64,000 nt of DNA from a virus: the UHGV virus genome UHGV-0038492; one strand, 5' to 3'. A program made the translations under genes and the position numbers. Shown here in pieces: positions 1,450 to 48,125 of this stretch. The stretch's first letter is position 1. Each line of letters starts with the position of its first letter. The notes under the pieces are model-generated. The model saw only the letters and a program-made list of their open reading frames with translations. It ran no database searches and had not been told where the DNA came from.

Positions 1450-1509
1450 AAAAAAGAAAGCTACTCCGACCCCAGAAGGGTCGGAGTAAGCTCGAATTAT
1501 TTTTTTTTT
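1448..1509. terminator. bidirectional terminator between convergent genes
   Basis: hairpin ctccgacccc/gggtcggag flanked by an A-run upstream and a T-run downstream. Confidence 0.55.
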
Positions 1510-1514
1510 GCTAT

Positions 1515-4184
1515 TTAGAGAGTTTCATCGGTGTTGTCGTCTGTACCGGTATCCGTCTCGTCCGTGCCCTCAGTTGAAACTTCTTCTTCCGTTGTCGTAT
1601 CGGTTTCCGTCGTTTCATCATCGGTCATGTCCAAGTCTTCATCACCGCCCAGATCGTCGCCACCAAAGTCGTTGCCCCCGCCGAAGTTATTGGCGTCTTC
1701 AGGATTCAAATCAGCCGCTTTTGCTATCGTCTGAACTTTACCGGTCGCACGTTTTGCTAACTGAATCAGCGTCTTCGATGCTGCTGCAATTTCATCAGAA
1801 ATCATCTTGACGTTTTCACCACGTTTATCTTCATCGTAGATCAAATCAAACAGATCGGTTTCGATGCCCTGATTACGTAGCCAGTTGCGCGCGTAGAAGG
1901 TCTTAACCATCGTCTTGAGGTCATCAGGTGACATTTCAATACCTTCGTTCTGAAGCATATTAGCAATGTCGTCCGTGACCACCAGATCTGCAAGTTTCTC
2001 GATAAATTCATAGCGTTTATCGAAGAGATCAGCTTGAGATGCTGTTGCAGAAGTATCAGGCGGCGGCAAGGTGACCTTCATACCGTTTATAAACTTCGCC
2101 ATATACTCTGACGTTTGTTTTGTCATCTCTTCGCTAGTTACATTCGGATTCTGCTCACGGATATACTCAACGATAATACGGATGAGTTCTGCTTGCAGTT
2201 TCGGTGAAGCTTGCAGACTGTTTGTAACGTAGCGCGTAAGCGGGGTTGAGAGGATTTCCTGTTTCTTCACAATCTGTTGAGTAACCAACAGCGATTTAGA
2301 ATAAATCTGAGAAGCAAACTCCAGGTTCTCCGGGGTAAGTACAAGGTCAGGATCAACACACGCGATGTGACATGTACGGCGTAACAGGTTCTCGTCAATT
2401 TGTTGATCAGGAACTTTATACTCCGGCGTGGTATCAGACACAGATACTTTGTGGCTGGCGTAGTAATCGTTACCCGTTACGTTAAAGGCAATCCCCGCGT
2501 TAGCCCCCATTGACCAGGCGTCGTTGATATCACCCCACATCGGCAGGCGACGATTGTAGGAATTAAGGATATCTGATTTAACTTGGTCAACAGTTTTTTG
2601 ACCGTTTGCATCATCTGGTGACAGCTCAATGTCGTACTGCATGTGACGTGCCGAGTTCAGTACAGATGAGTTCATCGTTGCGAACAGCAGCGCCATCCTG
2701 ACAGTAGAGATAATAAAGGAGCGCTCAGTAATAGAAACCCCGATACCGTCTTCGTTAAAGTCCGTTGCAAAATAGCACAAGTTATTAACCGGAATGTAAA
2801 CCACCTGAGTATGACGTTTTGCGAGATGCCGCGCTAACAGAATACGACCGAATGTTTCGGTAATATTCATGCTGATTTCTGCGCCACCTAGTGCCTGACT
2901 TAATGCGCGTGCAAATTCGTTTTCAGCGATTTCACCACAACGTGTACTTAAACGGTTGGCGATTTCCGGGGTAATACGAGAAGTGTTCCCTAAGCCCAGA
3001 TTAGAACGGTTAATGATGCTGTCCGTCATCCCGTCGTTATTCAGGTAGTTCATAAAGTTCGCATCGCCGTACAGCGAGGAGCGAGCATTGATGAAGTTAC
3101 CCATGTCATCTACGATGGTCAGATAACCGATAGGGTTACGAACGTCATCGCCAATTACCAGTGGCAGCGTTGACTCTGCGGGCAGTAAACGTTCGATGTA
3201 TTCGATTTTGTTATTCTCATCCATTGAGATAATAGGAATATCACCGTACGTTTGTGTTTTCGGTGTTGACTTATACGCCTCGTTTAAATCACCCAAGTTA
3301 ATGAACCCTTTTTCAGCAGCGTCACGCTGACGGTCATCGAAAGATTGATTAGGGTCGAACGGACTGCCACCGTTTGGTGTAGACGGCTTTTCATATGCGG
3401 CTTGCTCTAATTGCCCGTACAATCCCGTACGTGCGTTCTCATGCGCAATACGACGATACAAATCCGGCAGCATGGTAATGCGCGGGTTATCGGTAATCGT
3501 GATTTCCATCTGGAATTTATCCGAGAACATCGAATCGTGCTTACCGAAATCGATTTTCAATGTTTGTGGACCAGTAACGGCTCCGCGTAAACGGTTGAGA
3601 ATTGATTCTACACCAACTCGCTGCCCTTCTTTCGGCGCATTAATAGGCCCGAGGATACCAAGCTGTTGTTCGAAGAACGCCGTTTGAGAACGACGAATAG
3701 ATTCAGTAGCGACCTTTGTATTCAGACCGAATAATTGGTCGAAGCCGGTATCCGAGATTATCATCACTGGACTTGCGCCTTTGGTTTTTAACGCATCGTA
3801 AATCCACTGATATAATTTCTTAGGTAGCTGACGAATGTTATCGTGATAATCACGGGTCGGTGTCAGTAGCGCGTTACGCAGATCAATGGGGATGTCCGCG
3901 AAGTTGTCGTAAATCAACGTCGTGTTGATTAAGTCTTTTGTTGATAGCAGGCTCGAAGTTGCAATAGTAACGATTGTTTCGAGTTCAGGTAACGCATCAA
4001 AGATACGTTCCGCATTTTTGATAGTACGAATACGTGAACTCGCAATTGCCGTGAGTTCTTGACGTGTTGGCGTAGAACCACCCTCGCTACGCGTACCGCG
4101 TTGTTGCTGAGGTGCTGGGCCCGTAGTTTTACGAAGAATTGCAGCTACGGCGGGGTCGCCCGTTAATTTACTAATATCGTCCAT
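1515..4184 (-). CDS. large hypothetical protein (889 aa) with a strongly acidic Asp/Glu/Thr-rich C-terminal tail; function not recognised
   Basis: long uninterrupted ORF; C-terminal ~60 residues are almost all D/E/T/G; lone minus-strand gene in a plus-strand region. Confidence 0.7.
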   Translation of the reverse strand: MDDISKLTGDPAVAAILRKTTGPAPQQQRGTRSEGGSTPTRQELTAIASSRIRTIKNAERIFDALPELETIVTIATSSLLSTKDLINTTLIYDNFADIPIDLRNALLTPTRDYHDNIRQLPKKLYQWIYDALKTKGASPVMIISDTGFDQLFGLNTKVATESIRRSQTAFFEQQLGILGPINAPKEGQRVGVESILNRLRGAVTGPQTLKIDFGKHDSMFSDKFQMEITITDNPRITMLPDLYRRIAHENARTGLYGQLEQAAYEKPSTPNGGSPFDPNQSFDDRQRDAAEKGFINLGDLNEAYKSTPKTQTYGDIPIISMDENNKIEYIERLLPAESTLPLVIGDDVRNPIGYLTIVDDMGNFINARSSLYGDANFMNYLNNDGMTDSIINRSNLGLGNTSRITPEIANRLSTRCGEIAENEFARALSQALGGAEISMNITETFGRILLARHLAKRHTQVVYIPVNNLCYFATDFNEDGIGVSITERSFIISTVRMALLFATMNSSVLNSARHMQYDIELSPDDANGQKTVDQVKSDILNSYNRRLPMWGDINDAWSMGANAGIAFNVTGNDYYASHKVSVSDTTPEYKVPDQQIDENLLRRTCHIACVDPDLVLTPENLEFASQIYSKSLLVTQQIVKKQEILSTPLTRYVTNSLQASPKLQAELIRIIVEYIREQNPNVTSEEMTKQTSEYMAKFINGMKVTLPPPDTSATASQADLFDKRYEFIEKLADLVVTDDIANMLQNEGIEMSPDDLKTMVKTFYARNWLRNQGIETDLFDLIYDEDKRGENVKMISDEIAAASKTLIQLAKRATGKVQTIAKAADLNPEDANNFGGGNDFGGDDLGGDEDLDMTDDETTETDTTTEEEVSTEGTDETDTGTDDNTDETL

Positions 4185-4195
4185 TGGGGTCTCCG

Positions 4196-6379
4196 ATGCA
4201 GAGATTTAACATATTTCGTGAACAGAACATCGCGTTGGCGAAATCACTGATTATTAAATCAGAATCAATCGCACAACAGATGAATCTGGCAATAACCGAG
4301 AACGGCGGTTTCGTTTCCGATAACCGAAGTACGTGGCGATACTACCTGCATTTAGCAGGACAACGTCACGAATGGGATAAGCCCATTTACATAACGTCGC
4401 TCGACACGCAAGAGCAGATAGAATTAACGACAGCCAACCTGTCCCGTCATAAAAAGACCTCAAACGTATTTCGTTCGAACGGCGAGTACATTGAGGAGCT
4501 GATCAGAACGTATCCTGACTACGCGATTTATATCCGGGGTGTGTTTAATCCGGTGGATATAAACTACGCCATCCGTGTGGCTGACTGCTCTATCCTCTAT
4601 TACGACAGTTCATTAGTGGAGTCGCAAGAGACGTCGCTGATGTCGAGATTGGAAGACAGAATAAGGGCAGCTCACGTTCGCTATATGTCAGAAGGGTGGA
4701 AAGTTCACAACGATGCGTTCGTGTTAGCATTCTACTGTATTCTGTATCCGCAGCTACCCGGCATTATCGGCTATATCCGTTCTTCTTTACAGCATACCAC
4801 GGAAACACATTCTTTTTACGTGACCGAGTTCTTAGCATCACACCAAGAACTTCACGAGTTTATGCCTTATCTGACCCAGAAACAGAAATTCATTCTGTAT
4901 CGGAATATTCGTTACTGGGAGCGTAATTCAGGGAAAGAGGAGATTTTCGACTGGCAGATTGATGCGCTACTGACAGGTTGGGGGATGCCTGCGGTCGGGT
5001 ATAATGTTGCGCAGCAGATACACGAACCGAAGGATGATGACGATTCCACGTTAACACCGTTACCGATTGGTTATCAGCAATCGCTTAACTATACGGAAAA
5101 GGATTCTGGTCGAGACCTTGACATTGTAACGACGACGGACATTATCCAGAAGGAAGTCGCGTTAGCGTACAATAACCCGGCGTACGAACCGGAGTATCAA
5201 GAAGACTTAGATACCCGTTTAAGTTTAACGCAATACCCTAACCTAAAAACCAAACTCATTGAAGTTACAGCAGTCGATCCAGAAGCGATTGAGCGCTTCG
5301 AGTATCTGCATAACCTCTTTAACGAATGGGTACATCTCGTCGCGAAAGGGAAATACAACATTTACCACGAGATTCTTAACCCAACAAACGGGGATACCTT
5401 AAAGCTTAGCTCAAAAGAGTTATTGGCGCTGTTCTTGTACGCGGCGTATAAAGGGTATTCTGACGTTGCGTTAGAAGAGATTCCTGTGTTCAACGTATTC
5501 GGGGTGTTAATCAAACGCTGGGTTCCATTCGATGAAATGGAACAACATTTAATCCCGAGCTGGGAAAACCGTTTCGATGCGTTGATTAACTATTATACCG
5601 ATACGCACACAGAAGTCGTCGGAACGATTCTTAGTGCTGATGAACTTTACGACACGGTTAATGAAATCATTACCCAGAAACGCCGTCGTTGGCGTTATAG
5701 CCAAAACCGTCGGAAGATTCCTGACCGCGCTGCGGGCTTGATGCTGTTTAACTACCATTATCGTGATTATCGTTGCGATTTAAAACTGAACTACCGTAAC
5801 TACGATGAGTTCTTTAAAACGTTTGGGTTAGACTATACGTTGGTTTCGGCGGAGACGTGGCAAGACATTGCTATTGATGCGTTTAACACCGCAACTAACC
5901 TGGAAACCCGCGCAACGATTTCACAGTCTGAGATTCAGCGTGCGATGGTACGACTGATGACGAAGCTGTCATCCTACACCGTACATTTTGCTGCACGAAT
6001 GGGGTCAGATTCTTACGACGTTATGGACCCGCTCTGTCCTATCTTAGGGGATATCCCTATGAGTGGGGAGGGGACAATTACAATTATTGAACCCCTCTTA
6101 GGCGTACAGCAAGTTACGCGTCACCAGTATATGTCCACCGACACTGTGTTACCGGCAGCGCCTGTTATTAAAGAACTGTCGATGCCACAGCACATCAAAC
6201 TCAGGATGAACATTTACATGGGTATCCGAGTGAAAGTAACACAGCAGGTTGTGGTGGATATTAACGAGCCGACTACCGGGGTTGTTAAAGTGAAATCTTC
6301 GCTTGACGATTGGACGTTAAACGAACAGGTGAAAATTAACGATCTGGACGGCTTCACGCTTGACCAGCTACCTAAGTGA
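4196..6379 (+). CDS. hypothetical protein (~727 aa)
   Basis: long ORF; ATG at 4196, alternative TTG at 4184; start abuts the divergent upstream gene. Confidence 0.65.
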   Translation: MQRFNIFREQNIALAKSLIIKSESIAQQMNLAITENGGFVSDNRSTWRYYLHLAGQRHEWDKPIYITSLDTQEQIELTTANLSRHKKTSNVFRSNGEYIEELIRTYPDYAIYIRGVFNPVDINYAIRVADCSILYYDSSLVESQETSLMSRLEDRIRAAHVRYMSEGWKVHNDAFVLAFYCILYPQLPGIIGYIRSSLQHTTETHSFYVTEFLASHQELHEFMPYLTQKQKFILYRNIRYWERNSGKEEIFDWQIDALLTGWGMPAVGYNVAQQIHEPKDDDDSTLTPLPIGYQQSLNYTEKDSGRDLDIVTTTDIIQKEVALAYNNPAYEPEYQEDLDTRLSLTQYPNLKTKLIEVTAVDPEAIERFEYLHNLFNEWVHLVAKGKYNIYHEILNPTNGDTLKLSSKELLALFLYAAYKGYSDVALEEIPVFNVFGVLIKRWVPFDEMEQHLIPSWENRFDALINYYTDTHTEVVGTILSADELYDTVNEIITQKRRRWRYSQNRRKIPDRAAGLMLFNYHYRDYRCDLKLNYRNYDEFFKTFGLDYTLVSAETWQDIAIDAFNTATNLETRATISQSEIQRAMVRLMTKLSSYTVHFAARMGSDSYDVMDPLCPILGDIPMSGEGTITIIEPLLGVQQVTRHQYMSTDTVLPAAPVIKELSMPQHIKLRMNIYMGIRVKVTQQVVVDINEPTTGVVKVKSSLDDWTLNEQVKINDLDGFTLDQLPK

Positions 6380-6386
6380 GAAAACC

Positions 6387-6914
6387 ATGGCATATCGCGT
6401 CGACTTAACGAAAACTCCGAAACAAATTCTGGTAGATCGTATTAACTACGTTTTCGGGGTATCCTATACCACTGATAACATCGATTTTAACGATAAAGGT
6501 GTGCAACCACTGACGAAAGACGAAGCCCGTCGTTACGGACTGGAATCGAAAGTGGCCGCTGACTTTAAAAACGGTGTTACAGGGAACCAGGAATTCATCT
6601 TAACCCGTGTTGACCTGGCAACGTTCTTAGCTGACGAACCGGTTACGGTACCGAAAGGCGAAGTAACCAGCAGCCAAGAACTGGCAGACTATATCGTTGC
6701 CCAGACCGGTATTGATTTGACCCAAGACGACATTATGATCGAGCCTATCAGTGAGGAACTCGATTCTTATGATGTTCGCTTAGTCCCGAATCACTTATCT
6801 TTTAAAGGAACGATTCCGGTCGTATTTACTGACCCCACACCACGCACGTTGGCGTCTCTCGTGACGAAACTTGCGCTGGACGGGTTCCGCCCTGGAGAAT
6901 TAATCAATGTCTAA
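6387..6914 (+). CDS. hypothetical protein
   Basis: ATG at 6387 just after the upstream stop; the track start at 6360 is TTG. Confidence 0.6.
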   Translation: MAYRVDLTKTPKQILVDRINYVFGVSYTTDNIDFNDKGVQPLTKDEARRYGLESKVAADFKNGVTGNQEFILTRVDLATFLADEPVTVPKGEVTSSQELADYIVAQTGIDLTQDDIMIEPISEELDSYDVRLVPNHLSFKGTIPVVFTDPTPRTLASLVTKLALDGFRPGELINV

Positions 6915-7794
6915 TGTCAAAGTTTACGACGGTAAACTCTCGACGGTAACACTTAATGCGATGCGTCTGGCTACCGCATTAATTACCGGTGCCGATGTGC
7001 AATACCCACAGAAGTCCACACTGAATGAGTTTTATAAACTCATGCAAACCCCAGTGCCGGACGGTAAAGCACGTCCCCATTTGCAGTACATGGCGATTGG
7101 TAACCGTGGCCATATGGTCGACACATCAGACGTTGTTGCTGATGTTGTTCCTGTAGCTAAAGAACCTATCGCGTCCGGGATGTTTTCACGCGTTCCGTTT
7201 GTCCTGCGTACTAAAGACAACGATTTGTCTGATGAACAGCGTAAGAACTACGCTTTCCGTACTCTGGAAACCATCAACAAACGTGAGTATTGGGCGTACT
7301 ACTTAAAACGCATTGACATGCGTGCAGTAAAAACTACCGACTACGACATTAAGCGTGAGAACGGTGTTGAAACTGTAGAAGACTTTGTCTATACGGATAC
7401 TGAACTGAACCCGGTACCGAAAGTGTTGCCGGACTACGATTACGATGATGACGGTACCGTTGCAATTCCTGACGGCCGTTATGTGGAATCAGGTGCAGAC
7501 CTGGTTATTCCGTGGACGGACTTTGACGTTCAGGAGTACATGAACGTGACCAGCATTATGCGCGGTAGCCCTCGTAGTTCGATTATCTCTGAACTGGCAC
7601 TGTGCTCTGGCTTAGACCAGGTAACGTCCGGTGACTCTGCTACAGGTTCGAAGTTCAGCTACACTGAAGCTATCGGTGTACAAGCCCTGTATTACATTTC
7701 GATGTTTACTAACCTGGCGCAGACGAACGATAAACTGTCACTGACAATCCGTATCGGTCAACCTGCACCGTTCTTCTTAGGGACAGCGAATTAA
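6907..7794 (+). CDS. hypothetical protein
   Basis: 295-codon ORF, start overlaps the upstream stop. Confidence 0.6.
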   Translation: MSNVKVYDGKLSTVTLNAMRLATALITGADVQYPQKSTLNEFYKLMQTPVPDGKARPHLQYMAIGNRGHMVDTSDVVADVVPVAKEPIASGMFSRVPFVLRTKDNDLSDEQRKNYAFRTLETINKREYWAYYLKRIDMRAVKTTDYDIKRENGVETVEDFVYTDTELNPVPKVLPDYDYDDDGTVAIPDGRYVESGADLVIPWTDFDVQEYMNVTSIMRGSPRSSIISELALCSGLDQVTSGDSATGSKFSYTEAIGVQALYYISMFTNLAQTNDKLSLTIRIGQPAPFFLGTAN

Positions 7795-8438
7795 TGTTGA
7801 TTCCTGAGCCGAGACTTCCCGATAAAATGGTCAGGATCGCGGCGATAGACCCCGGTACGAGCCATCTCGGGATGGCGGTGCTGGATTGGGAATATGGCAG
7901 CGACCAAGCCGAAGTGGTGTGGGCTGATACCATGCACGTATTAGACCCAACACATCCAAGTGCGTTTGCAGAGTGTGTCGGTAAACGCGACGATCGCTTA
8001 GTAAAACTCGAAGCGTGCTACCGTGAGTTTCTTCGGATTGCGCGTCCGACGTTTGTTGCAACAGAAACGCCGTTTATGCGGCGGGCAAAACTCTCCGCGT
8101 ATGAGTCTGGTGTAGAGTTACAGCTGATGTTAAGACGGGCGTTATGGGACGTGTTTCCAGAGAAAGTGTTACACGGGTTCAATCCGATTATTGTAAAATC
8201 ATTCGTCGGTGTGGAAGCGAAAGGAACGGACAAAACAGATATGTTTCGTGCCGTAACGAAGTTGTATCGCGACCACGCGTTGTTTGACATTACAACGTTG
8301 GATGAGCACAGTATCGATGCCGTGGCGGTGGGGAATATCTTTGTCAGGGTAAACCTGTTAAACTTGAATAGTCTCCTACCGCCAAAACAAAAGTCTGCTA
8401 AGACAGCAAAACGGCGGAGAAGACGTCGGAGGAAATAG
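7794..8438 (+). CDS. RuvC-like Holliday-junction resolvase (putative), with a poly-Arg C-terminus
   Basis: N-terminal RIAAIDPGTSHLGMAVLD resembles the RuvC-fold catalytic Asp motif; C-terminus KRRRRRRRK; ATG overlaps the upstream TAA. Confidence 0.5.
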   Translation: MLIPEPRLPDKMVRIAAIDPGTSHLGMAVLDWEYGSDQAEVVWADTMHVLDPTHPSAFAECVGKRDDRLVKLEACYREFLRIARPTFVATETPFMRRAKLSAYESGVELQLMLRRALWDVFPEKVLHGFNPIIVKSFVGVEAKGTDKTDMFRAVTKLYRDHALFDITTLDEHSIDAVAVGNIFVRVNLLNLNSLLPPKQKSAKTAKRRRRRRRK

Positions 8439-8440
8439 CG

Positions 8441-9019
8441 ATGTCGCAACCAACACAAGACGTGTCAGCCGCAATTCTTGACATTCTTATCCAAGCAGGG
8501 AACAGAAAGTTAAGTAAAGAGCAGTCCGAAGAACTGTCTAAGATTCTCAAAGACAACTTCGGTGATGATGTCTCTGTAGACGTAACGCGGTCGGGTACAA
8601 AGATTCTGTCGGAGCTACGCCCAACGCTTCTTGAGAACATTGGAAAGATGGCGGAAAACTTTCAGCAGCAAGCCACAAATGCTGTAGAGAGTTTAGGTGA
8701 CGAAGTAAGCAAAGAAACGATGTTGACACTGTGGCCGAAACTTGCCGGTGCACAGAAGTTCATTATTGTTCTGCTTGCACTCGCCACTGTGGTCGTGACA
8801 GGCTTCTTAGCGTACGACACGCATCAGAACTATCCAACAGACAGTATGGAAGTGTTGTTTGTATCCTTACTTCCGCTGTTCGGACTGGTAGTATTTGCAA
8901 CGTGGCCGATTAAAACGTTGGCTTACAAGTCGTTGGAGATTGCTACCAAAGTTGTCGAGAAGAAACTTGAGAAATCAGGTCAGGTCGTCGCGAAGACGGA
9001 AACAAAGACAACGAAATAA
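8441..9019 (+). CDS. membrane protein (two predicted TM helices)
   Basis: hydrophobic stretches FIIVLLALATVVVTGFLAY and LFVSLLPLFGLVVFATW. Confidence 0.6.
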   Translation: MSQPTQDVSAAILDILIQAGNRKLSKEQSEELSKILKDNFGDDVSVDVTRSGTKILSELRPTLLENIGKMAENFQQQATNAVESLGDEVSKETMLTLWPKLAGAQKFIIVLLALATVVVTGFLAYDTHQNYPTDSMEVLFVSLLPLFGLVVFATWPIKTLAYKSLEIATKVVEKKLEKSGQVVAKTETKTTK

Positions 9020-9025
9020 AACCAA

Positions 9026-9063
9026 CCTCTACCTTCGGGTAGAGGTTTTCTTCTTTTTATTTT
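9026..9063 (+). terminator. intrinsic terminator
   Basis: hairpin cctctacc-ttcg-ggtagagg plus T-run. Confidence 0.65.
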
Positions 9064-9107
9064 ACAATTTTTGATCATACTGTGAGACTTGAACAAGGAG
9101 ACTTATC

Positions 9108-12542: not shown

Positions 12543-13676
12543 ATGTCAACGTTAGATAGCGACTTAGAAGTGCTTTGTGACGATTACGACCGACTCGTAG
12601 CGTTAGAATCCATTGGAGTAAAAGACAATTATCCGGCTATCGTTGCTATCCGTAAACGTTGGCTTTTGGATGATGTGGTTGTTGCGTCAGAGTCTGCGGC
12701 CATGATGCACCGTGCACAGTTTTTGTCAGACACGGAACCTGATAAAGGGATAGGCAAAGCGGCGGCACGACTCACCGGACGTGCGGTTCGTGGCGTAAGT
12801 CGGGTAGCAGGACGTGCTGCCAGTGCAGGTGCAAAAGCATCGGCGAACTTCGCAGGTAAACATTCCAAACAACTTGCTTTACGTTTTGTGGATTTTGCTG
12901 AGGCTGCGGGTAAAGAAGTCATTAAGGAATTAAAAGAAGCGACGTCTAAAGCGACGACCTTAGAGCGCAAACTGCAAAAGTTAAATGCACGTCTAAATTT
13001 AATCGGTGACAAAGACACCTTAAAACCGGTTGACTGCGACACGGGAAGCTGGACGACCAAAGTTTGTTTAGAAGACAAACCTAACGTAAAAGCGTGTATT
13101 GAGTTCAGTAAGAACCTGAACGCAATGGATGCGATGGTCAACGAGTATACCGTTAAAACGCGCACCATTATCGGTAAGAGCAAGAAAGTTACTGAGAGTG
13201 GCTTGGAGAAAGTAGGTCGCTCAACGAACTGGGCGATTAAACGTAGTGCAGGGCTGTTCGGTATTATCGATCCGTTTAAAACGGTGAAAGCGTATCCGTG
13301 GCCAGGTAACGTGGTGGTCGTTGAACACGACAACGGTAAGATTGAGTGGGCGATTGCCCGTGATGGTGATTTTGGCCACTCAATCAAATCTCTGAACTTA
13401 CACGAAATCGGTTCGGCTCTCGAAGCCGTTGAAAAAATTATCCGAGCTTTACGTCAGCGTGGTACGAAGCGACGTAGCGTTGGTTATACCGGTATTTACG
13501 ATGAAGTTCAGCGAATGAAAAAAGAGCTGAAGTCGTTAGACGGTCGTGAGTTACGCGATGCTACCGTTCGGTATAAGAACGCACTGCGTTTAGAAGATGC
13601 GTTTACTACCTCGTTAGTGCGTGTTGCGGAAGGCTTACTGGAATGGTGCAGGTTGTCGCTGATTGAGGTTAAATAA
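12543..13676 (+). CDS. hypothetical protein (377 aa)
   Basis: long ORF in an operon-like run. Confidence 0.6.
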   Translation: MSTLDSDLEVLCDDYDRLVALESIGVKDNYPAIVAIRKRWLLDDVVVASESAAMMHRAQFLSDTEPDKGIGKAAARLTGRAVRGVSRVAGRAASAGAKASANFAGKHSKQLALRFVDFAEAAGKEVIKELKEATSKATTLERKLQKLNARLNLIGDKDTLKPVDCDTGSWTTKVCLEDKPNVKACIEFSKNLNAMDAMVNEYTVKTRTIIGKSKKVTESGLEKVGRSTNWAIKRSAGLFGIIDPFKTVKAYPWPGNVVVVEHDNGKIEWAIARDGDFGHSIKSLNLHEIGSALEAVEKIIRALRQRGTKRRSVGYTGIYDEVQRMKKELKSLDGRELRDATVRYKNALRLEDAFTTSLVRVAEGLLEWCRLSLIEVK

Positions 13677-16479: not shown

Positions 16480-16520
16480 CTCAGATATATATTACCTTAG
16501 TGAGATTACACAGTAATCTC
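16480..16520 (+). promoter_or_regulatory. conserved promoter-like motif TCAGATATATATTACCTTAG followed by a 5' hairpin
   Basis: the same ~19-nt motif recurs at 38019 and 42447, with a variant at 21778; AT-rich upstream, TATATT -10-like core. Confidence 0.45.
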
Positions 16521-17632: not shown

Positions 17633-17660
17633 AGGGAGCTTCGGCTCCCTTTTTCTTTTT
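17633..17660 (+). terminator. intrinsic terminator
   Basis: hairpin agggagc-ttcg-gctccct plus T-run. Confidence 0.65.
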
Positions 17661-17706
17661 ACAACTTTTTCTTTTGTTGTGAGGAAAGCCGATAAGGAGT
17701 ATTAAA

Positions 17707-26664: not shown

Positions 26665-27228
26665 GTGGCCACATCTTACGTACCTGATTTGAGTCTGACC
26701 TCAGCAGAGCTAGTGGTCGCTTTAATCAATCATGATAACGGGTTACAGCTTACACTAAACGAAATCCGTATTAGCGGAACTGTAACAAACCCATCCCCAA
26801 CAACTTCGCGACGTAACACTATCACCGAAATCAGTAAAATCAGAAAACCAGATGGTGCGTCTGTTGTGGTTTACTACGACAGACTTGACGCCGATGAGGT
26901 ATTAACGTCCGAACCTATTTTGATTTCGTTAGACGGTACCGAAGCGAACATTCGTGATGTGCTTAGTGTTGTAAATGAATACTGCGGTACGAATTTACAA
27001 CCTGAGGACTTACGTGCCTCAGATATTACTTCAGGTAATGATCCTATTGCTATTAACGTTGCTGACGATTCTCCTGCCTGGATGAATGCGTTTATGGTGA
27101 CGTTGTTTGATAAAACCGAACGTGCGTTAGCGAACGAAGAAGATGAAATCTTCTGCATCGGTGACGATAGCGTTCTTACATTCGAGGTTACAGATGGCGA
27201 CAGCACTGAAGAAGACGAGACTCCATGA
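26665..27228 (+). CDS. tail-fibre-associated protein, member of a six-gene paralog family (paralog of 36829..37341)
   Basis: GTG start after GGAGGG; N-terminus PDLSLTS...NHD and C-terminal NEYCGTNLQPEDL shared with 36829. Confidence 0.6.
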   Translation: MATSYVPDLSLTSAELVVALINHDNGLQLTLNEIRISGTVTNPSPTTSRRNTITEISKIRKPDGASVVVYYDRLDADEVLTSEPILISLDGTEANIRDVLSVVNEYCGTNLQPEDLRASDITSGNDPIAINVADDSPAWMNAFMVTLFDKTERALANEEDEIFCIGDDSVLTFEVTDGDSTEEDETP

Positions 27229-27655
27229 GCTCGAAAGCTACGCAGGCACACCCCAAGGCGGGGTACTGCTGTATAGCAAAGACAATAAAGAATATAAAAT
27301 TGATGTTGATAAGTTAGCCCCGGTTGCGACAGTCACCACGGTTAACGGTTCGAATAATGCCGCCACGTTGGATTTCAATACCAGCACTGACATTATTCTG
27401 GTGTTAAACGATCCTAACACTACAGTGACGTTCGCAGCCCTTACCAACGTTGCAGAAAATACCCGTTTCGAAGTAATGCTAACGATTAAGCAAGGAACAG
27501 GGGCGAATAAAGTAACCTGGCCTGAAAACGTTAAATGGCCTCACGGTGCACAACCGGTTTTATCCTACGCGGCAAATGCGGAAGACACTCTGTCGCTTTA
27601 TACCCTTGATGGGGGTGCCACCTGGAAAGGTTCTCTTCTTGCAGCGGGTTACTAA
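27194..27655 (+). CDS. short fibre protein carrying the conserved fibre N-terminal domain
   Basis: N-terminus LKKTRLHELESYAGTPQGGVLLYSKDNKEYK matches the N-termini of 30743 and 37344. Confidence 0.55.
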   Translation: MATALKKTRLHELESYAGTPQGGVLLYSKDNKEYKIDVDKLAPVATVTTVNGSNNAATLDFNTSTDIILVLNDPNTTVTFAALTNVAENTRFEVMLTIKQGTGANKVTWPENVKWPHGAQPVLSYAANAEDTLSLYTLDGGATWKGSLLAAGY

Positions 27656-30661: not shown

Positions 30662-30742
30662 TAACCCGCTTATAAAAAAAATATTGGGGGGGGGGTAAGC
30701 TACTCCCCCCGATCTTTAGCTCCCGATAGAGAACTTAATATC

Positions 30743-33700
30743 ATGGCAAAAGCGGTAAAGAAAATACGATTACATAATCTTAGACCATATACCGGTGATA
30801 TCGGTGAAGGCGTTTTACTTTTCTCCAAGGATGAGAAAGATTATAAGTTACCAGTCCGTGAGATCATTGCGGATATTGACACCGTACGTAATGCGGTGGC
30901 TGAAGCACAGACAGCAGCAACACAATCACAAGAAGCTGCAACTCAGGCTACACAAGCAAAGAATTTAGCAGAAACAGCAAAACAACAAACTGACACCGTT
31001 GCAGCTACGGTTGCTCAACAAGCGCAAACTGTAACCGAAAAAGCAACTGAAGTCGGTACAAAACACACTGAAGTGTTAGCCGCGAAAACTGCGGTAGACG
31101 AAGTATCAGTGTCGGTGAATGAGAAGGCTCAAGCTGTCGCCGCAAGCGAACAATCGGTGACGGCTGCTGCGGCTGATGTAACTAAGAAAGCAGAAACGGT
31201 TGCGCAACAGGCCGGACAAGTTCAACAGACGGCTACCAGCGTCGCAAATACTGCGGCATCAGTTGAGGCCAGTAAAGGTGCAGTGGAGAAAATTGCTGCG
31301 CAGGTCACGAAAGATAAAGAAACGTCGGAGGGCGCGGCTACCCGCTCAGAAGCGGCCGCACAACGTGCTGAGAAAATCGCCGCCCAAGGCTTAGTTGACG
31401 CTAGTACGATCGGTAAAGGCATCGTTAAACTTAACGATACCCTGACTAGTGAATCCGTGACGGAGGCTGCCACGCCGTCCACGGTTAAACAGCTGAACGA
31501 CGAATTACAGTTAAAAGCCAATAAACATTCGCCGAATTTTACGGGTAAACCGACATCCCCAAAACCGCCGAAGGACTCGAATGACACGAGCATCTCCACA
31601 ACGTCCTGGGTGCGTGACGCGATTGCTGAATTGGTTGGTTCCTCACCCGAGACGTTAAATACCTTAGCGGAATTAGCAGAGGCGTTAGGTAATGACCCTA
31701 ACTTCGCAACAACGATCACTGAGGAGCTTGCGCAGAAGCAACCTATCAGCCCATTACTCACCGCAATCGCTGCGGTTACAAGTGCAGCAAACAAACTCCT
31801 GTATTTCACGGGCTCTAATAAAGTCGAGTTAACCGATTTTACAGAAACTGCCAGATCCTTGTTAGCGAAAGGGTCAACTGCGGATATTATTAACTTCCTG
31901 GGTTTGAAACCCACCGTTGATAAAGCAAACGGCGCACTACAGAAAAACTCTAACGGTGCTGATATCCCAAATAAAGAAACTTTTGCTCGCAACATCGGCC
32001 TATCTCCTGATACCTATCTGCGTTTCCGTGGCAAAATGCCTGTAGATGCTGATATTAACACATTTGCTCCAGATGCTAATTACACAGGAACGTGGTCTAA
32101 GTCGACATCAACCAATGCGTCGATGGCAAAACACTTCCCAGAAGACGGTGCAGTCGGTTATCTGGAAGTGTATAAAGCGGGCAACTACAGTGGCGCGCAA
32201 CGTTTTACCTGTCGTAATGGTAACGTGTACAACCGTATGTTGTCAGCCGCGTGGAACGGAACTAATGGCCCGTGGTCGCCGTGGAGAATGGTAACTACCG
32301 GTGTACGCCCGTTATCTACATCGATTGATCTGAACTCTTTAGGCGGTGCCGAACACATGGGTAACTGGCGTAACTCGTCCAGTTCGTTAGCGGTGTTTGA
32401 CAGACATTATCCTGAAGAGGGCGGTGGCGCTCAAGGTGTTCTGGAAGTCATGGAAGGTGGTCTTTACGGACGGTTGCAGCGATACACTACGCGTCGTGGC
32501 ACAATGTATGTCCGTGGTTTGACTGCAACATGGGATTCATCAAACCCACAATGGGAAGATTGGATTCAGGTTGGTTATCAGACTGACGGTGCTTTCTTTA
32601 AAGCCAATTTTAACGATCTCGTTAAACCGGGTCGTTTCAGTGTCACTGGTCAGGCAACTAACGGCCCACTTACCGGTTCTTCTGGCGAAACCATATTAGG
32701 CGTTTGTGAAGTTACCTTACGCTTAGACGGTACAGGGGTCGAACAGAATTATACCACATACGGCACGGGTGCAGAAACTAAAGGTCGTAAATTCCAACGT
32801 ATCCGTACGGGTAACATTTGGAGCGATTGGCGTGAGGTTTTCACATCCTATTCGCTTCCGTTGGCCTTAGGTATCGGTGGGGTTGCTGCCAAGGTCGATC
32901 CGTTAGACTGGCAAACCTTCGACTTCGTTCCTGGCCAGATGATAAGCACACCGTTGAATACCATGAAAAACATTCCTGCGGGAATGGATTGGGGTGTTAT
33001 TGACGGTAACTTGGTCACTATTCTTGTAGGGGCGTCGGAGGACACCGGTACTGGTCGGAGTATGTTGGTCTGGCGTGGTACAGTGTCTACTGCTAACTAT
33101 CGCTTCTTTGCAGTACGTATCGCCGGTGAGAAGGGTAGCCGTACGATTACGCCACGACAGATGCCTGTGTTAAATGCAGCACACACTTGGGCCGAGAAAC
33201 AAACGTTCTCTAAAGGCTTAGCGGGTGAATTGACAGGTAATGCGTCAACGGCAACGAAACTGAAAACAGCCCGTTTAATCGGTGGTGTAAGTTTCGACGG
33301 CACTAGCGACATTCCACTCCCTGGTGTTAACCAGCAAGGTAATCAAAACACCACTGGGAACGCGGGAACCGCAACCAAATTACAAACGGCTCGAAACATC
33401 AACGGTGTGAAATTCGATGGCTCTAGAGACATCAATATCAACACCTTGGTAGGACGTGGACGTGTTACTGCACTGACGGGATCAAACAAAGGTACGCCTG
33501 GTATTCAGATGTACGAAGTTTACAATAACGGTTATCCGACCGCTTATGGTAACTTATTGCATTTGGGTGGTGCTACTGCGCTAGGCGAAGGCGAGTTGTT
33601 AATCGGATGGTCGGGGACGAGTGGTGCGCACGCGCCAGTTTATATTCGTAGCCGACGTGATACGGCTGACGCGCCGTGGTCAGATTGGGCACAAGTTTAT

Positions 33701-35302
33701 ACTGCCCGTGACAGCATTCCTGGCGTAAATGCCACAGGTAATCAAGATACTACCGGCAATGCCGCTACCGCGACGAAACTGAAAACCGCTCGCAGAATTG
33801 GAGGCGTTACCTTTGACGGTACTGGGGATATCAATTTACCGGGGGTTAACCAAGCCGGTAACCAGAATACGTCAGGTAATGCTGCGACAGCGACTAAACT
33901 TCAGACTGCGCGAAATATAGGCGGTGTGGCTTTTGATGGTACTAAAGACATCAGTTTACCTGGTGTAAACCAGACGGGTAATCAGTCGACTACCGGAAAC
34001 GCAGCCACGGCCACAAAGTTGCAGACAGCTCGTACCATTAACGGTATCCCATTTGACGGCACTAGAAATATATCGTTAGGGCCTGCCGATATAGGTTGCC
34101 CGGCATCACCTAGTGGTTGGTTAGAAACTGGCGCTGATGGCGCTGCAATAACTACAGCACAGCTAGTGACGTTATTGAAAAATAACGGCGCGTTTACCAC
34201 AAGATCGTGGGTTGCTCGCTGCGCATGGGCTTATGCCGCTAGTGCAAGTATACCTCATAGCGAGACGGGTTGTGGTGTTATTCCATTAGCTGGGGCTGTT
34301 ATAGAAGTGATTAGTAACGGCAACAGCACAAACAACTACACGATCCGTATAACGACCGCCACAACGACGAGCGTCTCCGGCGCACTCACTAATGCGGAGT
34401 TTATCTACGTATTTAACGGCGATACTTACTCACCAGGTTGGCGTCGCGTGTACAATACGAGAAACAAGCCAACTGCTGCGGATGTTGGGGCGTTGCCATT
34501 ATCTGGCGGTCAGTTGAATGGCGCGTTGGGTATTGGAACCACTAATGCTTTAGGTGGGAACTCCATAGTTTTAGGGGATAATGACACCGGCCTTAAGCAG
34601 AACGGGGATGGCGTTCTAGATGTTTACGCCAATAATGCTCATGTTTTACGCTTTACGAGTGGGGCTGTTCAAAGCAATAAACCTCTCAACGTTACCGGAG
34701 ATATAAGAACCAATACTTGGGTTTATGCAAATAGATATTCTATTAACAGCAACTCAGGTTCTTGGATTAGCATGAGAGACCATAACGTTATTTTTGGTCT
34801 TAATCCGGTAGGAACTAGTTCTGCTCAGGCATTGTTAAGACAAGACCATGCTGATAGGAAATTTTTTGTTGGTGGTTTAGGTAACTATCAATTCGGCTTT
34901 TACATGATAAACAACTCACGTACTGATAATGGCACCGATGCTAATGCTTATTTGCAAAACGACGGTACTTGGGTTTGTGGTGGGAACGGTAACTTTAACG
35001 ACGTTTATATACGATCTGACGCCCGGCTGAAAAGTAATTTCTCTCCAATAACTAATGCATTGGAGAAGGTAAAGGAATTGTCAGGTTTAATATACGACAA
35101 AAAGGAGAACTTTAAATCCACTAATGTTCATCGTGAGGCTGGTGTTGTAGCGCAGACCTTACAAAAAGTGTTACCTGAAGCAGTTTCTACTTATAAAGAC
35201 GCTAATGGTGAGGACGTTTTGACGGTCTCTAACTCTGCACAAATAGCTCTACTTATTGAAGCAATAAAGGAGTTGGCGGAGATAATTGAGACCAAGTTAT
35301 AA
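30743..35302 (+). CDS. long tail fibre protein with Phage_fiber_2-type repeats and a C-terminal intramolecular chaperone (S74-like) domain
   Basis: N-terminal Ala/Gln-rich coiled-coil; six GNAATATKLQTAR-x-I-x-GV-x-FDG repeats; C-terminal IRS-DARLKSNF autocleavage motif. Confidence 0.8.
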   Translation: MAKAVKKIRLHNLRPYTGDIGEGVLLFSKDEKDYKLPVREIIADIDTVRNAVAEAQTAATQSQEAATQATQAKNLAETAKQQTDTVAATVAQQAQTVTEKATEVGTKHTEVLAAKTAVDEVSVSVNEKAQAVAASEQSVTAAAADVTKKAETVAQQAGQVQQTATSVANTAASVEASKGAVEKIAAQVTKDKETSEGAATRSEAAAQRAEKIAAQGLVDASTIGKGIVKLNDTLTSESVTEAATPSTVKQLNDELQLKANKHSPNFTGKPTSPKPPKDSNDTSISTTSWVRDAIAELVGSSPETLNTLAELAEALGNDPNFATTITEELAQKQPISPLLTAIAAVTSAANKLLYFTGSNKVELTDFTETARSLLAKGSTADIINFLGLKPTVDKANGALQKNSNGADIPNKETFARNIGLSPDTYLRFRGKMPVDADINTFAPDANYTGTWSKSTSTNASMAKHFPEDGAVGYLEVYKAGNYSGAQRFTCRNGNVYNRMLSAAWNGTNGPWSPWRMVTTGVRPLSTSIDLNSLGGAEHMGNWRNSSSSLAVFDRHYPEEGGGAQGVLEVMEGGLYGRLQRYTTRRGTMYVRGLTATWDSSNPQWEDWIQVGYQTDGAFFKANFNDLVKPGRFSVTGQATNGPLTGSSGETILGVCEVTLRLDGTGVEQNYTTYGTGAETKGRKFQRIRTGNIWSDWREVFTSYSLPLALGIGGVAAKVDPLDWQTFDFVPGQMISTPLNTMKNIPAGMDWGVIDGNLVTILVGASEDTGTGRSMLVWRGTVSTANYRFFAVRIAGEKGSRTITPRQMPVLNAAHTWAEKQTFSKGLAGELTGNASTATKLKTARLIGGVSFDGTSDIPLPGVNQQGNQNTTGNAGTATKLQTARNINGVKFDGSRDININTLVGRGRVTALTGSNKGTPGIQMYEVYNNGYPTAYGNLLHLGGATALGEGELLIGWSGTSGAHAPVYIRSRRDTADAPWSDWAQVYTARDSIPGVNATGNQDTTGNAATATKLKTARRIGGVTFDGTGDINLPGVNQAGNQNTSGNAATATKLQTARNIGGVAFDGTKDISLPGVNQTGNQSTTGNAATATKLQTARTINGIPFDGTRNISLGPADIGCPASPSGWLETGADGAAITTAQLVTLLKNNGAFTTRSWVARCAWAYAASASIPHSETGCGVIPLAGAVIEVISNGNSTNNYTIRITTATTTSVSGALTNAEFIYVFNGDTYSPGWRRVYNTRNKPTAADVGALPLSGGQLNGALGIGTTNALGGNSIVLGDNDTGLKQNGDGVLDVYANNAHVLRFTSGAVQSNKPLNVTGDIRTNTWVYANRYSINSNSGSWISMRDHNVIFGLNPVGTSSAQALLRQDHADRKFFVGGLGNYQFGFYMINNSRTDNGTDANAYLQNDGTWVCGGNGNFNDVYIRSDARLKSNFSPITNALEKVKELSGLIYDKKENFKSTNVHREAGVVAQTLQKVLPEAVSTYKDANGEDVLTVSNSAQIALLIEAIKELAEIIETKL
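33230..33440 (+). repeat. intragenic fibre repeats (two copies)
   Basis: GNASTATKLKTARLIGGVSFDG / GNAGTATKLQTARNINGVKFDG. Confidence 0.7.
33724..34078 (+). repeat. intragenic fibre repeats (three copies)
   Basis: three consecutive ~40-aa units GNQxTxGNAATATKL(K/Q)TAR..G..FDGT.DI.LPGVNQ. Confidence 0.7.
35017..35299 (+). other. intramolecular chaperone / autoproteolytic domain at the fibre C-terminus
   Basis: S-DARLK motif at the domain start followed by ~95 residues. Confidence 0.65.
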
Positions 35303-38018: not shown

Positions 38019-38060
38019 TCAGATATATATTACCTAGAGGAGAGCGAAATTTACATTCGC
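38019..38060 (+). promoter_or_regulatory. promoter-like motif TCAGATATATATTACCTAG plus hairpin
   Basis: exact copy of the motif at 16480 and 42447. Confidence 0.45.
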
Positions 38061-40236: not shown

Positions 40237-40322
40237 AGGGTTGAAACCCACTTTCGATAATTATTAAACAGGGGAATTTACCCCCCCCCTCCACATAGAG
40301 TAAATCCCTAAAGGAGCATTAA

Positions 40323-42446: not shown

Positions 42447-42496
42447 TCAGATATATATTACCTAGGTGAGAGTTCAGCTACTCTCACTTAACTAAA
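42447..42496 (+). promoter_or_regulatory. promoter-like motif TCAGATATATATTACCTAG plus hairpin plus TTAACTAAA
   Basis: exact motif copy; hairpin gtgagagt-tcagct-actctcac. Confidence 0.45.
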
Positions 42497-46992: not shown

Positions 46993-47472
46993 ATGGCCAA
47001 TCAAGAAACTATCTTCGACCTTATTAAAAAGGCTAACCCGGACGCTGAGTTCGACACCACCAAAGTCACACTGGGTGAACCGGTTGTGACCACCGGTACT
47101 TACAATACCGAAATTACGGTTGCGTCGATTAAGAATCTCGGTTATGTTAATAAGCAAACGTTCCAGTATAACCGCATTGACGCAGGTTTGTATTTCCTGA
47201 ACGTATTACCGAAATTGTTGGTAGAATCTGCAACGACTACCGCTGACTTACTGCCCGTCATTAACGAGCAGTACAGCCTAACCCTTACAGAAGACGACGT
47301 GTGGGTAGAACAGGTTGGTGAGTTACCGTTAGACGGTAGCGCAATCGAACACGGTATTTTCTTCCGTCCTGAGTGTCTGACCTGGGTTGGTGGTTTTACA
47401 GTGCGTGTTGCGCGTAAACCGGCTGACGCCACACCGCCAAAGACGGCGTCTCGCGCTAAAAAGAAAAAATAA
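46993..47472 (+). CDS. member of the six-gene paralog family; Lys-rich C-terminus
   Basis: ADLLPVINEQYSLTLTEDDV motif; N-terminus parallels 46131. Confidence 0.55.
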   Translation: MANQETIFDLIKKANPDAEFDTTKVTLGEPVVTTGTYNTEITVASIKNLGYVNKQTFQYNRIDAGLYFLNVLPKLLVESATTTADLLPVINEQYSLTLTEDDVWVEQVGELPLDGSAIEHGIFFRPECLTWVGGFTVRVARKPADATPPKTASRAKKKK

Positions 47473-47476
47473 TCAC

Positions 47477-47511
47477 AGGGTGGGGTAATCCCCACCCTCT
47501 TTTCTTTTTTG
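47477..47511 (+). terminator. intrinsic terminator
   Basis: hairpin agggtgggg-taat-ccccaccct plus T-run. Confidence 0.7.
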
Positions 47512-47534
47512 TGTAAAATAGGAGTTAAACGAAA

Positions 47535-48125
47535 ATGGCCGAACGTTGGACTAAAGAAGGTATTATTGAATCCAAAACCGATTTGGAAGGTGGGTACGTC
47601 AACGACCCTGACGACAAAGGTGGAGAAACCTGTCACGGGGTAACACTGACAACTGCACGCGAATACGGGTACAAAGGAAGAATGAAAGATCTGACCCGTG
47701 CGCAAGCGTTTGACATTTACGATCGTGGTTGGTGGAAGAAACTTAAACTCGATGAGATTTTCGCTATCTCGCCGATACTCGCCGACCGGATGTTTGATTT
47801 TGCTATTAACTCTGGCCGTGTTAACTGTGTGAAGTCATTACAACGTATTCTCAACGTTTTAAATAACGAAGGGAAACTTTACGCAGATATTGACACCGAC
47901 GGTGGTATGGGACCTAAAACACTAGGTGCTCTGAATGCTTATCTAAATTACCGTAAAGGCGAGGGATTAGGCATCTTAATCTTTGCGTTAATCTCACACC
48001 AGGTAACCTACTACACGGAAATCTCCGAAAAGCGTAAGAAGAATGAAAAATTCGCTTACGGCTGGTACGGACGTGTGTACAGGGAAATGCCGGATTATGT
48101 AGTGAAGGCGGGGTTAGTAAAATGA
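47535..48125 (+). CDS. endolysin: GH108-type lysozyme-like domain with C-terminal peptidoglycan-binding region
   Basis: N-terminal LEGGYVNDPDDKGGETCHGVT matches the GH108 signature; C-terminal GPKTLGALNAYL fits a PG_binding_3-type region. Confidence 0.7.
   Translation: MAERWTKEGIIESKTDLEGGYVNDPDDKGGETCHGVTLTTAREYGYKGRMKDLTRAQAFDIYDRGWWKKLKLDEIFAISPILADRMFDFAINSGRVNCVKSLQRILNVLNNEGKLYADIDTDGGMGPKTLGALNAYLNYRKGEGLGILIFALISHQVTYYTEISEKRKKNEKFAYGWYGRVYREMPDYVVKAGLVK

Follow-up and report, generated by a model that had tools for sequence, protein, structure and literature searches.

Portal gene and divergent baseplate gene

The window analysed here, the whole 64,000-nucleotide stretch of DNA from the virus genome UHGV-0038492, contains near its beginning a minus-strand gene for an 889-aa protein, which lies head-to-head with a plus-strand gene for a 727-aa protein. 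The locus has the following features:

1450..1510, both directions: bidirectional intrinsic terminator from the terminator scan, with an A-run, a GC hairpin (1461-1489) and a T-run
1518..4184, minus strand: portal coding sequence, 889 aa, ATG start, stop codon at 1515-1517, homolog of phiKZ gp129, SPN3US gp81 and Goslar gp36
1518..1718, minus strand: poly-acidic tail, predicted to be disordered, residues 823-889, no K/R, net charge of about -25 per subunit
1658..1659, minus strand: point in the tail where 48 nt (16 codons) are deleted in frame, from the DNA alignment with relatives L003-L006, flanks GGTGGC/GGTGGT
3438..4184, minus strand: predicted propeptide, residues 1-249, from AxE prohead-protease motifs
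3438-3446, minus strand: motif AHE, residues 247-249
3702-3710, minus strand: motif ATE, residues 159-161
4149..4184, no strand assigned: portal codons 1-12, at -12 to -47 of the neighbour's ATG, a constrained block and candidate promoter/5'UTR of the baseplate-wedge operon
4185..4195, no strand assigned: 11-bp divergent spacer TGGGGTCTCCG, with two back-to-back SD motifs
4186-4189, plus strand: SD motif GGGG of the baseplate gene, 6 nt from its ATG
complement of 4191-4194, minus strand: SD motif GGAG of the portal gene, 6 nt from its ATG
4196..6379, plus strand: divergent neighbour, 727 aa, homolog of the baseplate wedge protein phiKZ gp128 (PDB 9xqs_C, PHIKZ128, E 2.9e-81; PHROG 3222, E 3e-282)

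The minus-strand open reading frame is real and, with its stop codon, covers 1515..4184; position 4196, which the initial annotation gave as its end, belongs to the ATG of the neighbour. The gene had also been described as the only one on the minus strand in the first 49 kb, and this holds, the other minus-strand ORFs of at least 110 aa before 49.5 kb (8018-8458, 12629-13387, 26874-27251, 31222-31995 and 47142-47705) all being opposite plus-strand ORFs. Two of these plus-strand ORFs (12543-13676 and 30743-35302) have strong family matches.

The early guess that the N-terminal 800 residues belong to a portal was right, as seen by both homology and structure comparison. The protein matches PHROG 3004 over residues 2-886 (E=0), as well as the PDB chains 9xpe_M (PHIKZ129, E 1.3e-40, residues 41-182 and 333-856), 11ed_J, "Portal Protein gp36" of Goslar (E 1.2e-27, alignment from residue 10), and 36za_o8 (E 2e-23), the structures 9xpe and 36za having 12 chains each. 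More than 250 genomes carry this portal. The amino-acid identity to the portals of SPN3US and Erwinia phages is 72-75%, and the Pfam search gave nothing for the portal or for the 727-aa neighbour. The AF2 monomer model of the portal is moderate (pLDDT 63, pTM 0.53), and its top Foldseek match is also 9xpe_M (E 2e-24, target-normalised TM 0.59), followed by weaker matches that are mostly portals, including those of crAss001, N4, SU10, T4 and G20c. SPN3US gp81 has been treated as a portal, present in 12 copies per virion and with a mapped propeptide (PMC5694885, PMC10052503), while phiKZ gp129 (PMC13250141) and Goslar gp36 (bioRxiv 10.64898/2026.04.21.720040) are dodecameric portals by cryo-EM, and phiKZ gp128 is the baseplate wedge protein (PMC13250141). 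By analogy, the 889-aa protein would form a dodecameric ring at the unique capsid vertex. It is highly probable that this gene encodes the portal of an SPN3US/phiEaH2-like nucleus-forming jumbo phage (Chimalliviridae), along with the explanation developed below as a whole; it is a new phage protein of an already known portal family, and the observation is largely ordinary.

Among the known systems, SPN3US gp81 is ~72% identical at the amino-acid level, with 94% of the length covered. It has the ATE-161 motif too, its second AxE site is equivalent, and the 11-bp head-to-head junction, the order of the neighbouring genes and the presence of an acidic tail are likewise shared. It differs in its second motif (AQE-254 versus AHE-249 here), in its length (~913 aa versus 889 aa) and in the tail, whose sequence is unrelated in detail, being G/D-rich in the SPN3US type and T/E/D-rich here. 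The best structural match, phiKZ gp129 (PDB 9xpe), is homologous over most of its length and similarly lies head-to-head with the gp128 wedge gene, with flanking opposite-strand genes, a hairpin after the stop and a C-terminal region rich in G/D/S; however, identity is ~25% over the best-aligned part, the divergent gap is 35 bp instead of 11 bp, and the junction sequences are unrelated. Goslar gp36 (PDB 11ed) has the same wing/stem/clip/crown architecture and a D/E/T-rich C-terminal tail that aligns with the tail here, but it is longer (969 aa). T4 gp20 and T7 gp8 share the portal fold; T4 gp20, with which phiKZ gp129 has been compared (PMC13250141), gave weak Foldseek matches.

The head-to-head junction

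The portal start was initially noted to abut its divergent neighbour, and it does, with a true gap of 11 bp. The same annotation considered that a start codon could be mis-set, the true start being further downstream so that a normal intergenic promoter region is restored; the unusual gap is the sole argument for this, and it is almost certainly wrong. The N-termini MDDISKLT of the portal and MQRFNIFR of the neighbour are conserved across genera, 40 portals show no variation at D10, T21, R32, G35 and further early positions, and the PHROG match and the Goslar gp36 alignment begin at residues 2 and 10, respectively. Both ATGs are preceded by an SD motif at 6 nt, the same starts appear in independent annotations of six genomes, and the portal has no further in-frame Met before residue 141, where a start would remove many invariant residues. 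As judged from this conservation, both start codons are correct. The initial annotation had named a clear homology assignment together with a later start as what would overturn it; the homology is clear, but no later start comes with it and the gap stays as narrow as described.

The portal as a single opposite-strand gene facing a gp128-like wedge gene is a synteny common to the relatives examined, found in all five sampled genera of enterobacterial phages (gaps of 11-15 bp) and in one Phikzvirus. The gap is 11 bp in phiEaH2, the SPN3US type and four IMG/VR contigs, 12 bp in Wellingtonvirus, 15 bp in Machinavirus and Derbicusvirus, and 35 bp in Phikzvirus. The GTCTCC core of the spacer is invariant in 7 genomes of 6 lineages. 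The layout is a conserved synteny and probably ancestral.

Because the spacer is filled by the two ribosome-binding sites, the 5' end of each mRNA would lie inside the first codons of the opposite gene, unless the mRNAs are leaderless. Portal codons 1-12 have a synonymous-codon identity of 0.85, compared with 0.46 gene-wide, ranking first of 752 sliding 12-codon windows, which supports an embedded start for the baseplate operon; the block at 4149-4184 is consistent with portal coding DNA that houses a regulatory element of the neighbour. On the other side, codons 1-12 of the neighbour reach 0.62 versus 0.43, with 19 of the 651 windows equal or higher; this constraint on its 5' codons is weak and counts against an embedded start. 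Additionally, the terminator separates the portal stop from the convergent plus-strand gene, folds at -26.3 and -30.4 kcal/mol (z -5.8 and -6.4), and has equivalent hairpins after the portal stop in L001, L002, L007-L009 and L011. With the portal cassette closed off by this conserved, bidirectional terminator, the baseplate operon would not easily be fed from upstream, and the portal would be an insulated, monocistronic late gene.

The promoters of the phiKZ non-virion RNA polymerase (nvRNAP) are very compact, with a late TATG at the transcription start site and a middle AAanTTACc near -24 (PMC4666361, PMC7598289), and would be short enough to lie within the opening codons of an adjacent gene. 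The junction has AATTTAC within the constrained block (4165-4171, -31 relative to the baseplate gene). It also has a minus-strand TATG (4210-4213) at -29 to -26 of the portal, 26 nt upstream of its ATG. However, this TATG is not conserved among relatives, its position being AATG in the SPN3US type and TATT/TATA in L007-L009, and the phiKZ consensus may not be that of the SPN3US/Erwinia group. Upstream of genes in the window, TATG occurs 19 times versus 10.9 expected, only a modest enrichment. The phiKZ-type late TATG is not claimed here as the portal promoter, given its lack of conservation in the SPN3US type, Machinavirus, Wellingtonvirus and Derbicusvirus. The scan for sigma-70 -35/-10 sites found none near the junction (12 region-wide versus 13.2 in shuffles), k-mer enrichment upstream of the 71 listed gene starts returned mainly SD motifs and T-runs, and no second copy of the constrained junction block is present in the window. 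RNA folding of the junction region was no stronger than in shuffles on either strand (z +0.48 and +1.46), and a structured 5'UTR or attenuator was therefore discarded as well.

Alternatively, portal codons 1-12 could be constrained by nothing more than the start of the portal's own translation, the baseplate operon being transcribed from a deeper antisense promoter or by terminator read-through. Coding regions are often constrained at their 5' ends for translation, the block yielded no promoter motif that could be recognised, and other bins of the portal gene are moderately raised (0.68-0.71 at codons 181, 217, 373 and 505). However, translational constraint usually acts on composition or structure and not on exact codon identity across genera, special folding was not seen (z +0.5 and +1.5), none of the 752 windows exceeds this one, and the block sits exactly where the neighbour's promoter/5'UTR must be, so that this alternative is a possible but rather unlikely one.

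In the embedded-promoter model, which is preferred here for the junction, transcription would presumably be carried out by the phage's own RNA polymerases, the phiKZ promoters being only a few bases long. The tight spacing becomes less surprising because phage RNA polymerases use such compact promoters (PMC4666361, PMC7598289). The "unusual regulatory arrangement" of the initial annotation is therefore upheld in part: the conserved gap and the nucleotide-level constraint in the flanking coding DNA speak for it, and the compactness of these promoters makes it less exceptional.

Propeptide motifs and the acidic tail

The portal of this phage has AxE motifs that are conserved, on alignment, where the SPN3US prohead protease takes off an N-terminal propeptide of ~250 aa. 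In SPN3US gp81 the cleavage sites are ATE-161 and AQE-254 (PMC5694885, PMC10052503). Here, 40 homologs all keep A247 and E249 and nearly all keep E161, and by analogy the propeptide of the present phage would also be cleaved.

At the opposite end, the tail (67 aa) has zero K/R and ~39% D/E; the last 64 residues include 25 D/E (39%), 14 T, 9 G and 5 N. An earlier description of about 60 residues made of D/E/T/G only is about 75-78% true, as N, L, F, M, V, S and A are present too. In the AlphaFold model, the tail comes after the last predicted helix, and residues 824-889 have pLDDT 25-31 and no secondary structure. All full-length homologs (53/53) have a K/R-free acidic C-terminal run (median 89 aa, 37% D/E), so the tail is not due to chance; across the family it is its composition that is conserved, not its sequence or length. 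Compared with the four relatives L003-L006, which are 91-97% identical and have 905 aa versus 889 aa here, the tail has lost the 48 nt listed above. Despite this slippage-type indel, the tail DNA is compositionally biased and not a regular repeat, Tandem Repeats Finder having found nothing in it. Without K/R, the tail is also unlikely to be detected by trypsin-based mass spectrometry.

The tail extends past the crown domain described for Goslar gp36. That crown stops at residue 923 of 969 (bioRxiv 10.64898/2026.04.21.720040), which leaves 46 C-terminal residues undescribed. Similarly, the T7 gp8 crown has a disordered C-terminal end of 42 residues, proposed to order on core proteins (PMC6702177), and the upper surface of T4 gp20 is negatively charged (PMC4493910). 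In contrast, T4 gp20 has no proteolytic processing and just 8 disordered C-terminal residues (PMC5694885, PMC4493910), and in these papers neither it nor T7 gp8 is said to have a poly-acidic tail of 65-110 aa or a 250-aa propeptide.

The labels "DNA-mimic-like or scaffold-like" given initially are unsupported as a family assignment, the tail being a predicted disordered extension of the crown end of the portal and neither a folded DNA mimic nor a scaffold. The dense negative charge without K/R would suit a DNA mimic that binds DNA-binding proteins, such as host restriction/defence enzymes, or the terminase. Nevertheless, mimics of the Ocr and ArdA type are stand-alone folds with a rigid, B-DNA-like display of carboxylates, whereas this tail is predicted to be disordered (pLDDT 25-31) and not a rigid charge array, drifts freely in sequence and length, and is covalently joined to a virion portal that has its C-terminal crown within the capsid (bioRxiv 10.64898/2026.04.21.720040, PMC4493910). 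Also, the terminase docks on the external clip domain and not on the crown, according to the title of a reference in PMC6702177. A mimic role is very unlikely.

Less improbable, though still doubtful, is a scaffold-like role in which the tail serves assembly or targeting only for a time, recruiting basic core/ejection proteins at prohead initiation and being removed or irrelevant after maturation. In T4-like systems the portal serves to nucleate the head (PMC4493910), SPN3US heads hold a large mass of internal proteins (PMC7411985), the T7 crown end offers a precedent for ordering on core proteins (PMC6702177), and the tail is conserved in all the homologs. However, no AxE protease motif exists beyond portal residue 291, which leaves no obvious removal route, and the portal region known to be processed is the N-terminal one (PMC10052503).

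Here it is proposed that 12 tails, with ~300 negative charges, would extend from the crown into the inside of the capsid. In that space they may form an electrostatic brush that keeps packaged DNA away from the mouth of the channel; they may also, or instead, give internal head proteins (ejection or inner-body) a flexible place to dock while the prohead assembles. The scaffold-like reading overlaps this docking option, and the two are not mutually exclusive.

Meaning for jumbo phages

The result is mainly a correct annotation of an SPN3US/phiEaH2-like jumbo phage, with a portal at 1518-4184 and a baseplate wedge at 4196-6379. The predicted disordered poly-acidic tail appears to be universal among Chimalliviridae portals yet undiscussed; the word "acidic" is absent from the SPN3US head-assembly paper (PMC5694885) and the Goslar structure preprint (bioRxiv 10.64898/2026.04.21.720040). 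The portal/baseplate junction, for its part, is conserved and ultra-compact and is probably a divergent control region, with nucleotide-level selection on the coding DNA at its flanks; it offers a handy natural test case for what determines the middle and late promoters that the non-virion RNA polymerase uses in enterobacterial jumbo phages.

More speculatively, and with the odds against it, the portal and wedge genes would share an obligatorily overlapping divergent control region and, separately, the poly-acidic tails may anchor the internal protein body on the portal. If the control region is shared, each gene's opening codons, about a dozen, would be the promoter/5'UTR of the other, with the ribosome-binding sites back-to-back in 11 bp, and the two late mRNAs would have complementary 5' ends. 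Transcriptional interference or antisense pairing could then couple or mutually limit the expression of the head initiator and the tail initiator, in an arrangement that would have been kept from a time before the SPN3US lineage diverged from that of phiKZ.

Portal identity and genomic setting

The ORF listing of the window has an 889-aa minus-strand ORF with an ATG start at 1515-4184. No Pfam match was obtained with this protein; PHROG 3004, a head-and-packaging family labelled 'virion structural protein', aligned to its residues 2-886 with E=0. A PDB sequence search matched PHIKZ129 (9xpe_M, 12 chains) at E 1.3e-40 and 'Portal Protein gp36' (11ed_J) at E 1.2e-27; another virion structural protein that it matched, 36za_o8, is also present in 12 chains. 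In the phiKZ portal-adaptor complex (9XPE), gp129 is the dodecameric portal (PMC13250141). An AlphaFold2 model built with 40 homologs as input was of moderate quality (pLDDT 63.4, pTM 0.53), and with it the top Foldseek match was also 9xpe_M (E 2e-24), the weaker ones being mostly portals (crAss001, N4, SU10, T4 gp20, G20c). Portal was among the families that the initial annotation had proposed for the N-terminal part, and these matches bear this out. The protein adds a new member to a portal family that has been characterised both in structure and in biochemistry: by tblastn against phage genomes it is 72-75% identical to proteins of Erwinia phages Asesino and Stratton and of SPN3US-type Salmonella, Escherichia and Proteus phages (a number of these proteins carry the annotation 'portal protein'), with more distant matches in 256 jumbo-phage records. 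The SPN3US ortholog, gp81, which occurs 12 times per virion, is regarded as the portal (PMC5694885). Because the window has only ~73% nucleotide identity to phiEaH2 and 91-97% protein-level identity to IMG/VR and metagenomic contigs, it belongs to a relative of the Erskinevirus/Seoulvirus group that has not yet been isolated.

As initially noted, the portal is effectively the sole minus-strand gene in the first 49 kb, since up to 49.5 kb every other minus-strand ORF of 110 aa or more lies opposite a plus-strand ORF, and two of these plus-strand ORFs match a family strongly. At ~49500-51400 gene orientation changes from plus to minus, with the cumulative GC skew maximum near 50 kb and, at ~49.5-50.1 kb, a short divergent gene pair with an AT-rich palindromic upstream sequence (ATATCTATATTTTAGGAAATG...). 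The minus-strand block includes two adjoining, overlapping radical-SAM-domain genes (52542-53864 and 53848-54771), both PHROG 1802 (E 8e-116 and 1e-61). On the plus strand, 30743-35302 encodes a 1519-aa tail-fibre protein with patchwise matches to 58 different PHROG tail-fibre families, including the T4-like long-tail-fibre distal C-terminus, and looks like a mosaic host-range protein.

Predicted maturation and the acidic tail

In SPN3US gp81, a 254-residue N-terminal propeptide is removed by the prohead protease gp245, which cuts after ATE-161 and AQE-254 (PMC5694885, PMC10052503). The window portal likewise has AxE motifs at 159-161 (ATE) and 247-249 (AHE), where cleavage is predicted; among 40 aligned homologs, A247 and E249 never vary and E161 hardly varies. 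Since no AxE motif was found in the window portal past residue 291, the mature protein is predicted to comprise residues 250-889 and to keep the acidic tail (residues 823-889).

The C-terminal 67 residues contain no K or R, and the last 64 include 25 D/E, 14 T, 9 G and 5 N, so that the acidic tail first reported is real, while its description as D/E/T/G only is about three-quarters true. A K/R-free C-terminal run was present in 53/53 full-length homologs (median 89 aa, median D/E 37%), although the tails are unalignable between genera, some being G/D-rich and others T/E-rich or E-rich. Compared with four IMG/VR relatives of 91-97% identity, the window portal has a 48-nt in-frame deletion in the tail at 1658/1659 (minus strand), giving 889 instead of 905 aa; the short repeats GGTGGC/GGTGGT border it, and the deletion is consistent with slippage. 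In the model, the last long helix (788-823) directly precedes residues 824-889, which lack secondary structure (pLDDT 25-31). In Goslar gp36 (969 aa), the described crown stops at residue 923 (bioRxiv 10.64898/2026.04.21.720040), and the D/E/T-rich residues past it align with the window tail. Because of the conserved acidic runs, the low pLDDT and this alignment, the tail is best read, from sequence and model, as a conserved, disordered, poly-anionic extension at the capsid-interior end of the portal. The initial suggestion of a DNA-mimic-like tail finds no support if this means a protein of the Ocr/ArdA type.

In the T7 portal crown, the last 42 residues are disordered and have been proposed to gain order on internal core proteins (PMC6702177). 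Twelve tail copies would amount to roughly 300 negative charges, and the favoured reading is that the tail would act as an electrostatic brush, as a site where internal proteins dock, or as both.

The head-to-head junction

The elements around the portal gene are as follows.

1450-1510, both strands: strong bidirectional terminator (A-run/GC-hairpin/T-run; stem 1461-1489) directly past the portal stop codon
1515-4184, minus: portal gene
4185-4195: 11-bp spacer, TGGGGTCTCCG
4196-6379, plus: 727-aa wedge gene, from its first ATG
9024-9047, both strands: strong bidirectional intrinsic terminator (A-run, GC hairpin, T-run) ending the plus-strand block that starts at 4196

The phiKZ baseplate structure contains the match of the 727-aa protein, PHIKZ128 (9xqs_C, E 2.9e-81), gp128 being the baseplate wedge protein (PMC13250141). 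The initial annotation ended the minus-strand gene at 4196, which is the neighbour's start codon; the ORF itself and the tight gap are real.

Portal/wedge gap in related genomes
phiEaH2: 11 bp (annotation)
SPN3US-type phage: 11 bp (annotation)
Four IMG/VR contigs: 11 bp
A Machinavirus: 15 bp
A Derbicusvirus: 15 bp
A Wellingtonvirus: 12 bp
A Phikzvirus: 35 bp

Wherever the layout was examined, the portal gene stands alone, with its neighbours on the opposite strand; the divergent layout is a conserved synteny and presumably ancestral. The suspicion of a mis-set start is refuted: judged by sequence, both start codons appear correct, since the N-termini are conserved (MDDISKLT in the portal, MQRFNIFR in the wedge), GGGG and GGAG lie 6 nt ahead of the plus-strand and portal ATGs, respectively, and the TTG at 4184, a possible earlier start of the neighbour, is out of frame in the Machinavirus genome, owing to a 4-nt insertion. 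The GTCTCC core of the spacer is invariant in 7 genomes.

Codon identity was scored where the amino acid matched between the window and five genomes from other genera. It was 0.85 for portal codons 1-12 vs 0.46 gene-wide (top of 752 sliding 12-codon windows) and 0.62 vs 0.43 for neighbour codons 1-12 (19/651 windows equal or higher). Selection thus acts at the nucleotide level on the 36 nt that, seen from the wedge gene, lie directly upstream of the spacer, and this fits an embedded promoter or 5'UTR; alternatively, the portal's own translation initiation region could cause the constraint on its codons 1-12.

Terminators, promoters and implications

The 1461-1489 hairpin folds at -26 and -30 kcal/mol on the two strands (z ~ -6 on both), and six relatives have an equivalent hairpin after the portal stop. 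This makes the portal an insulated single-gene cassette, and transcription of the wedge-led operon most likely requires an antisense promoter inside portal coding DNA. The same plus-strand block (4196-9019) contains a RuvC-like Holliday junction resolvase (7794-8438, PHROG 159) with a poly-basic C-terminal tail (...KSAKTAKRRRRRRRK). Upstream of several genes, G-run/C-run hairpins such as GGGGGGGGGGTAAGCTACTCCCCCC (~30680-30720, 40270-40300, 50690-50720) look like terminators made of homopolymer tracts.

An unusual regulatory arrangement had been suspected because almost no promoter space is left. The junction is indeed constrained, conserved and ultra-compact; however, little space is needed, because phiKZ-type phages use their own virion and non-virion RNA polymerases with short promoters, the late one essentially TATG over the start site and the middle ones an AAanTTACc motif near -24 (PMC4666361, PMC7598289), and virion RNAP subunits are present in SPN3US (PMC5694885). 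A TATG 26 nt ahead of the portal ATG is not conserved in relatives, and AATTTAC at 4165-4171 has no more than a resemblance to the middle motif. The window held no second copy of the constrained block, no sigma-70-like sites occurred near the junction (nor enrichment in the region-wide count), and folding gave no evident RNA structure there.

Elsewhere, the AT-rich 15-mer AGATATATATTACCT has three exact plus-strand copies (16483-16497, 38021-38035, 42449-42463), each ~45-70 nt upstream of a plus-strand gene, and 6 matches in total with up to 3 mismatches vs 1.5 expected; it is a candidate consensus for early (virion RNAP) promoters. TTTTAC-N15-TGTGAG occurs twice on the plus strand (9060-9086 and 17657-17683; 0.07 expected), both times just 3' of terminator-like hairpin/T-runs and ahead of a gene (at 9108 and 17707, respectively), and TTTAC was observed 27 times upstream of genes vs 14 expected. 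This may be a second promoter class akin to the phiKZ middle motif.

No discussion of the universality of the poly-acidic tail or of the nucleotide constraint at the junction was found in the literature on these phages and portals consulted for comparison, and both are modest extensions of known biology. It is a speculative, rather improbable proposal that overlapping divergent promoters yield 5'-complementary head and tail mRNAs and that the tail anchors an internal protein body. If true, obligatorily overlapping promoters would give head and tail mRNAs with complementary 5' ends.
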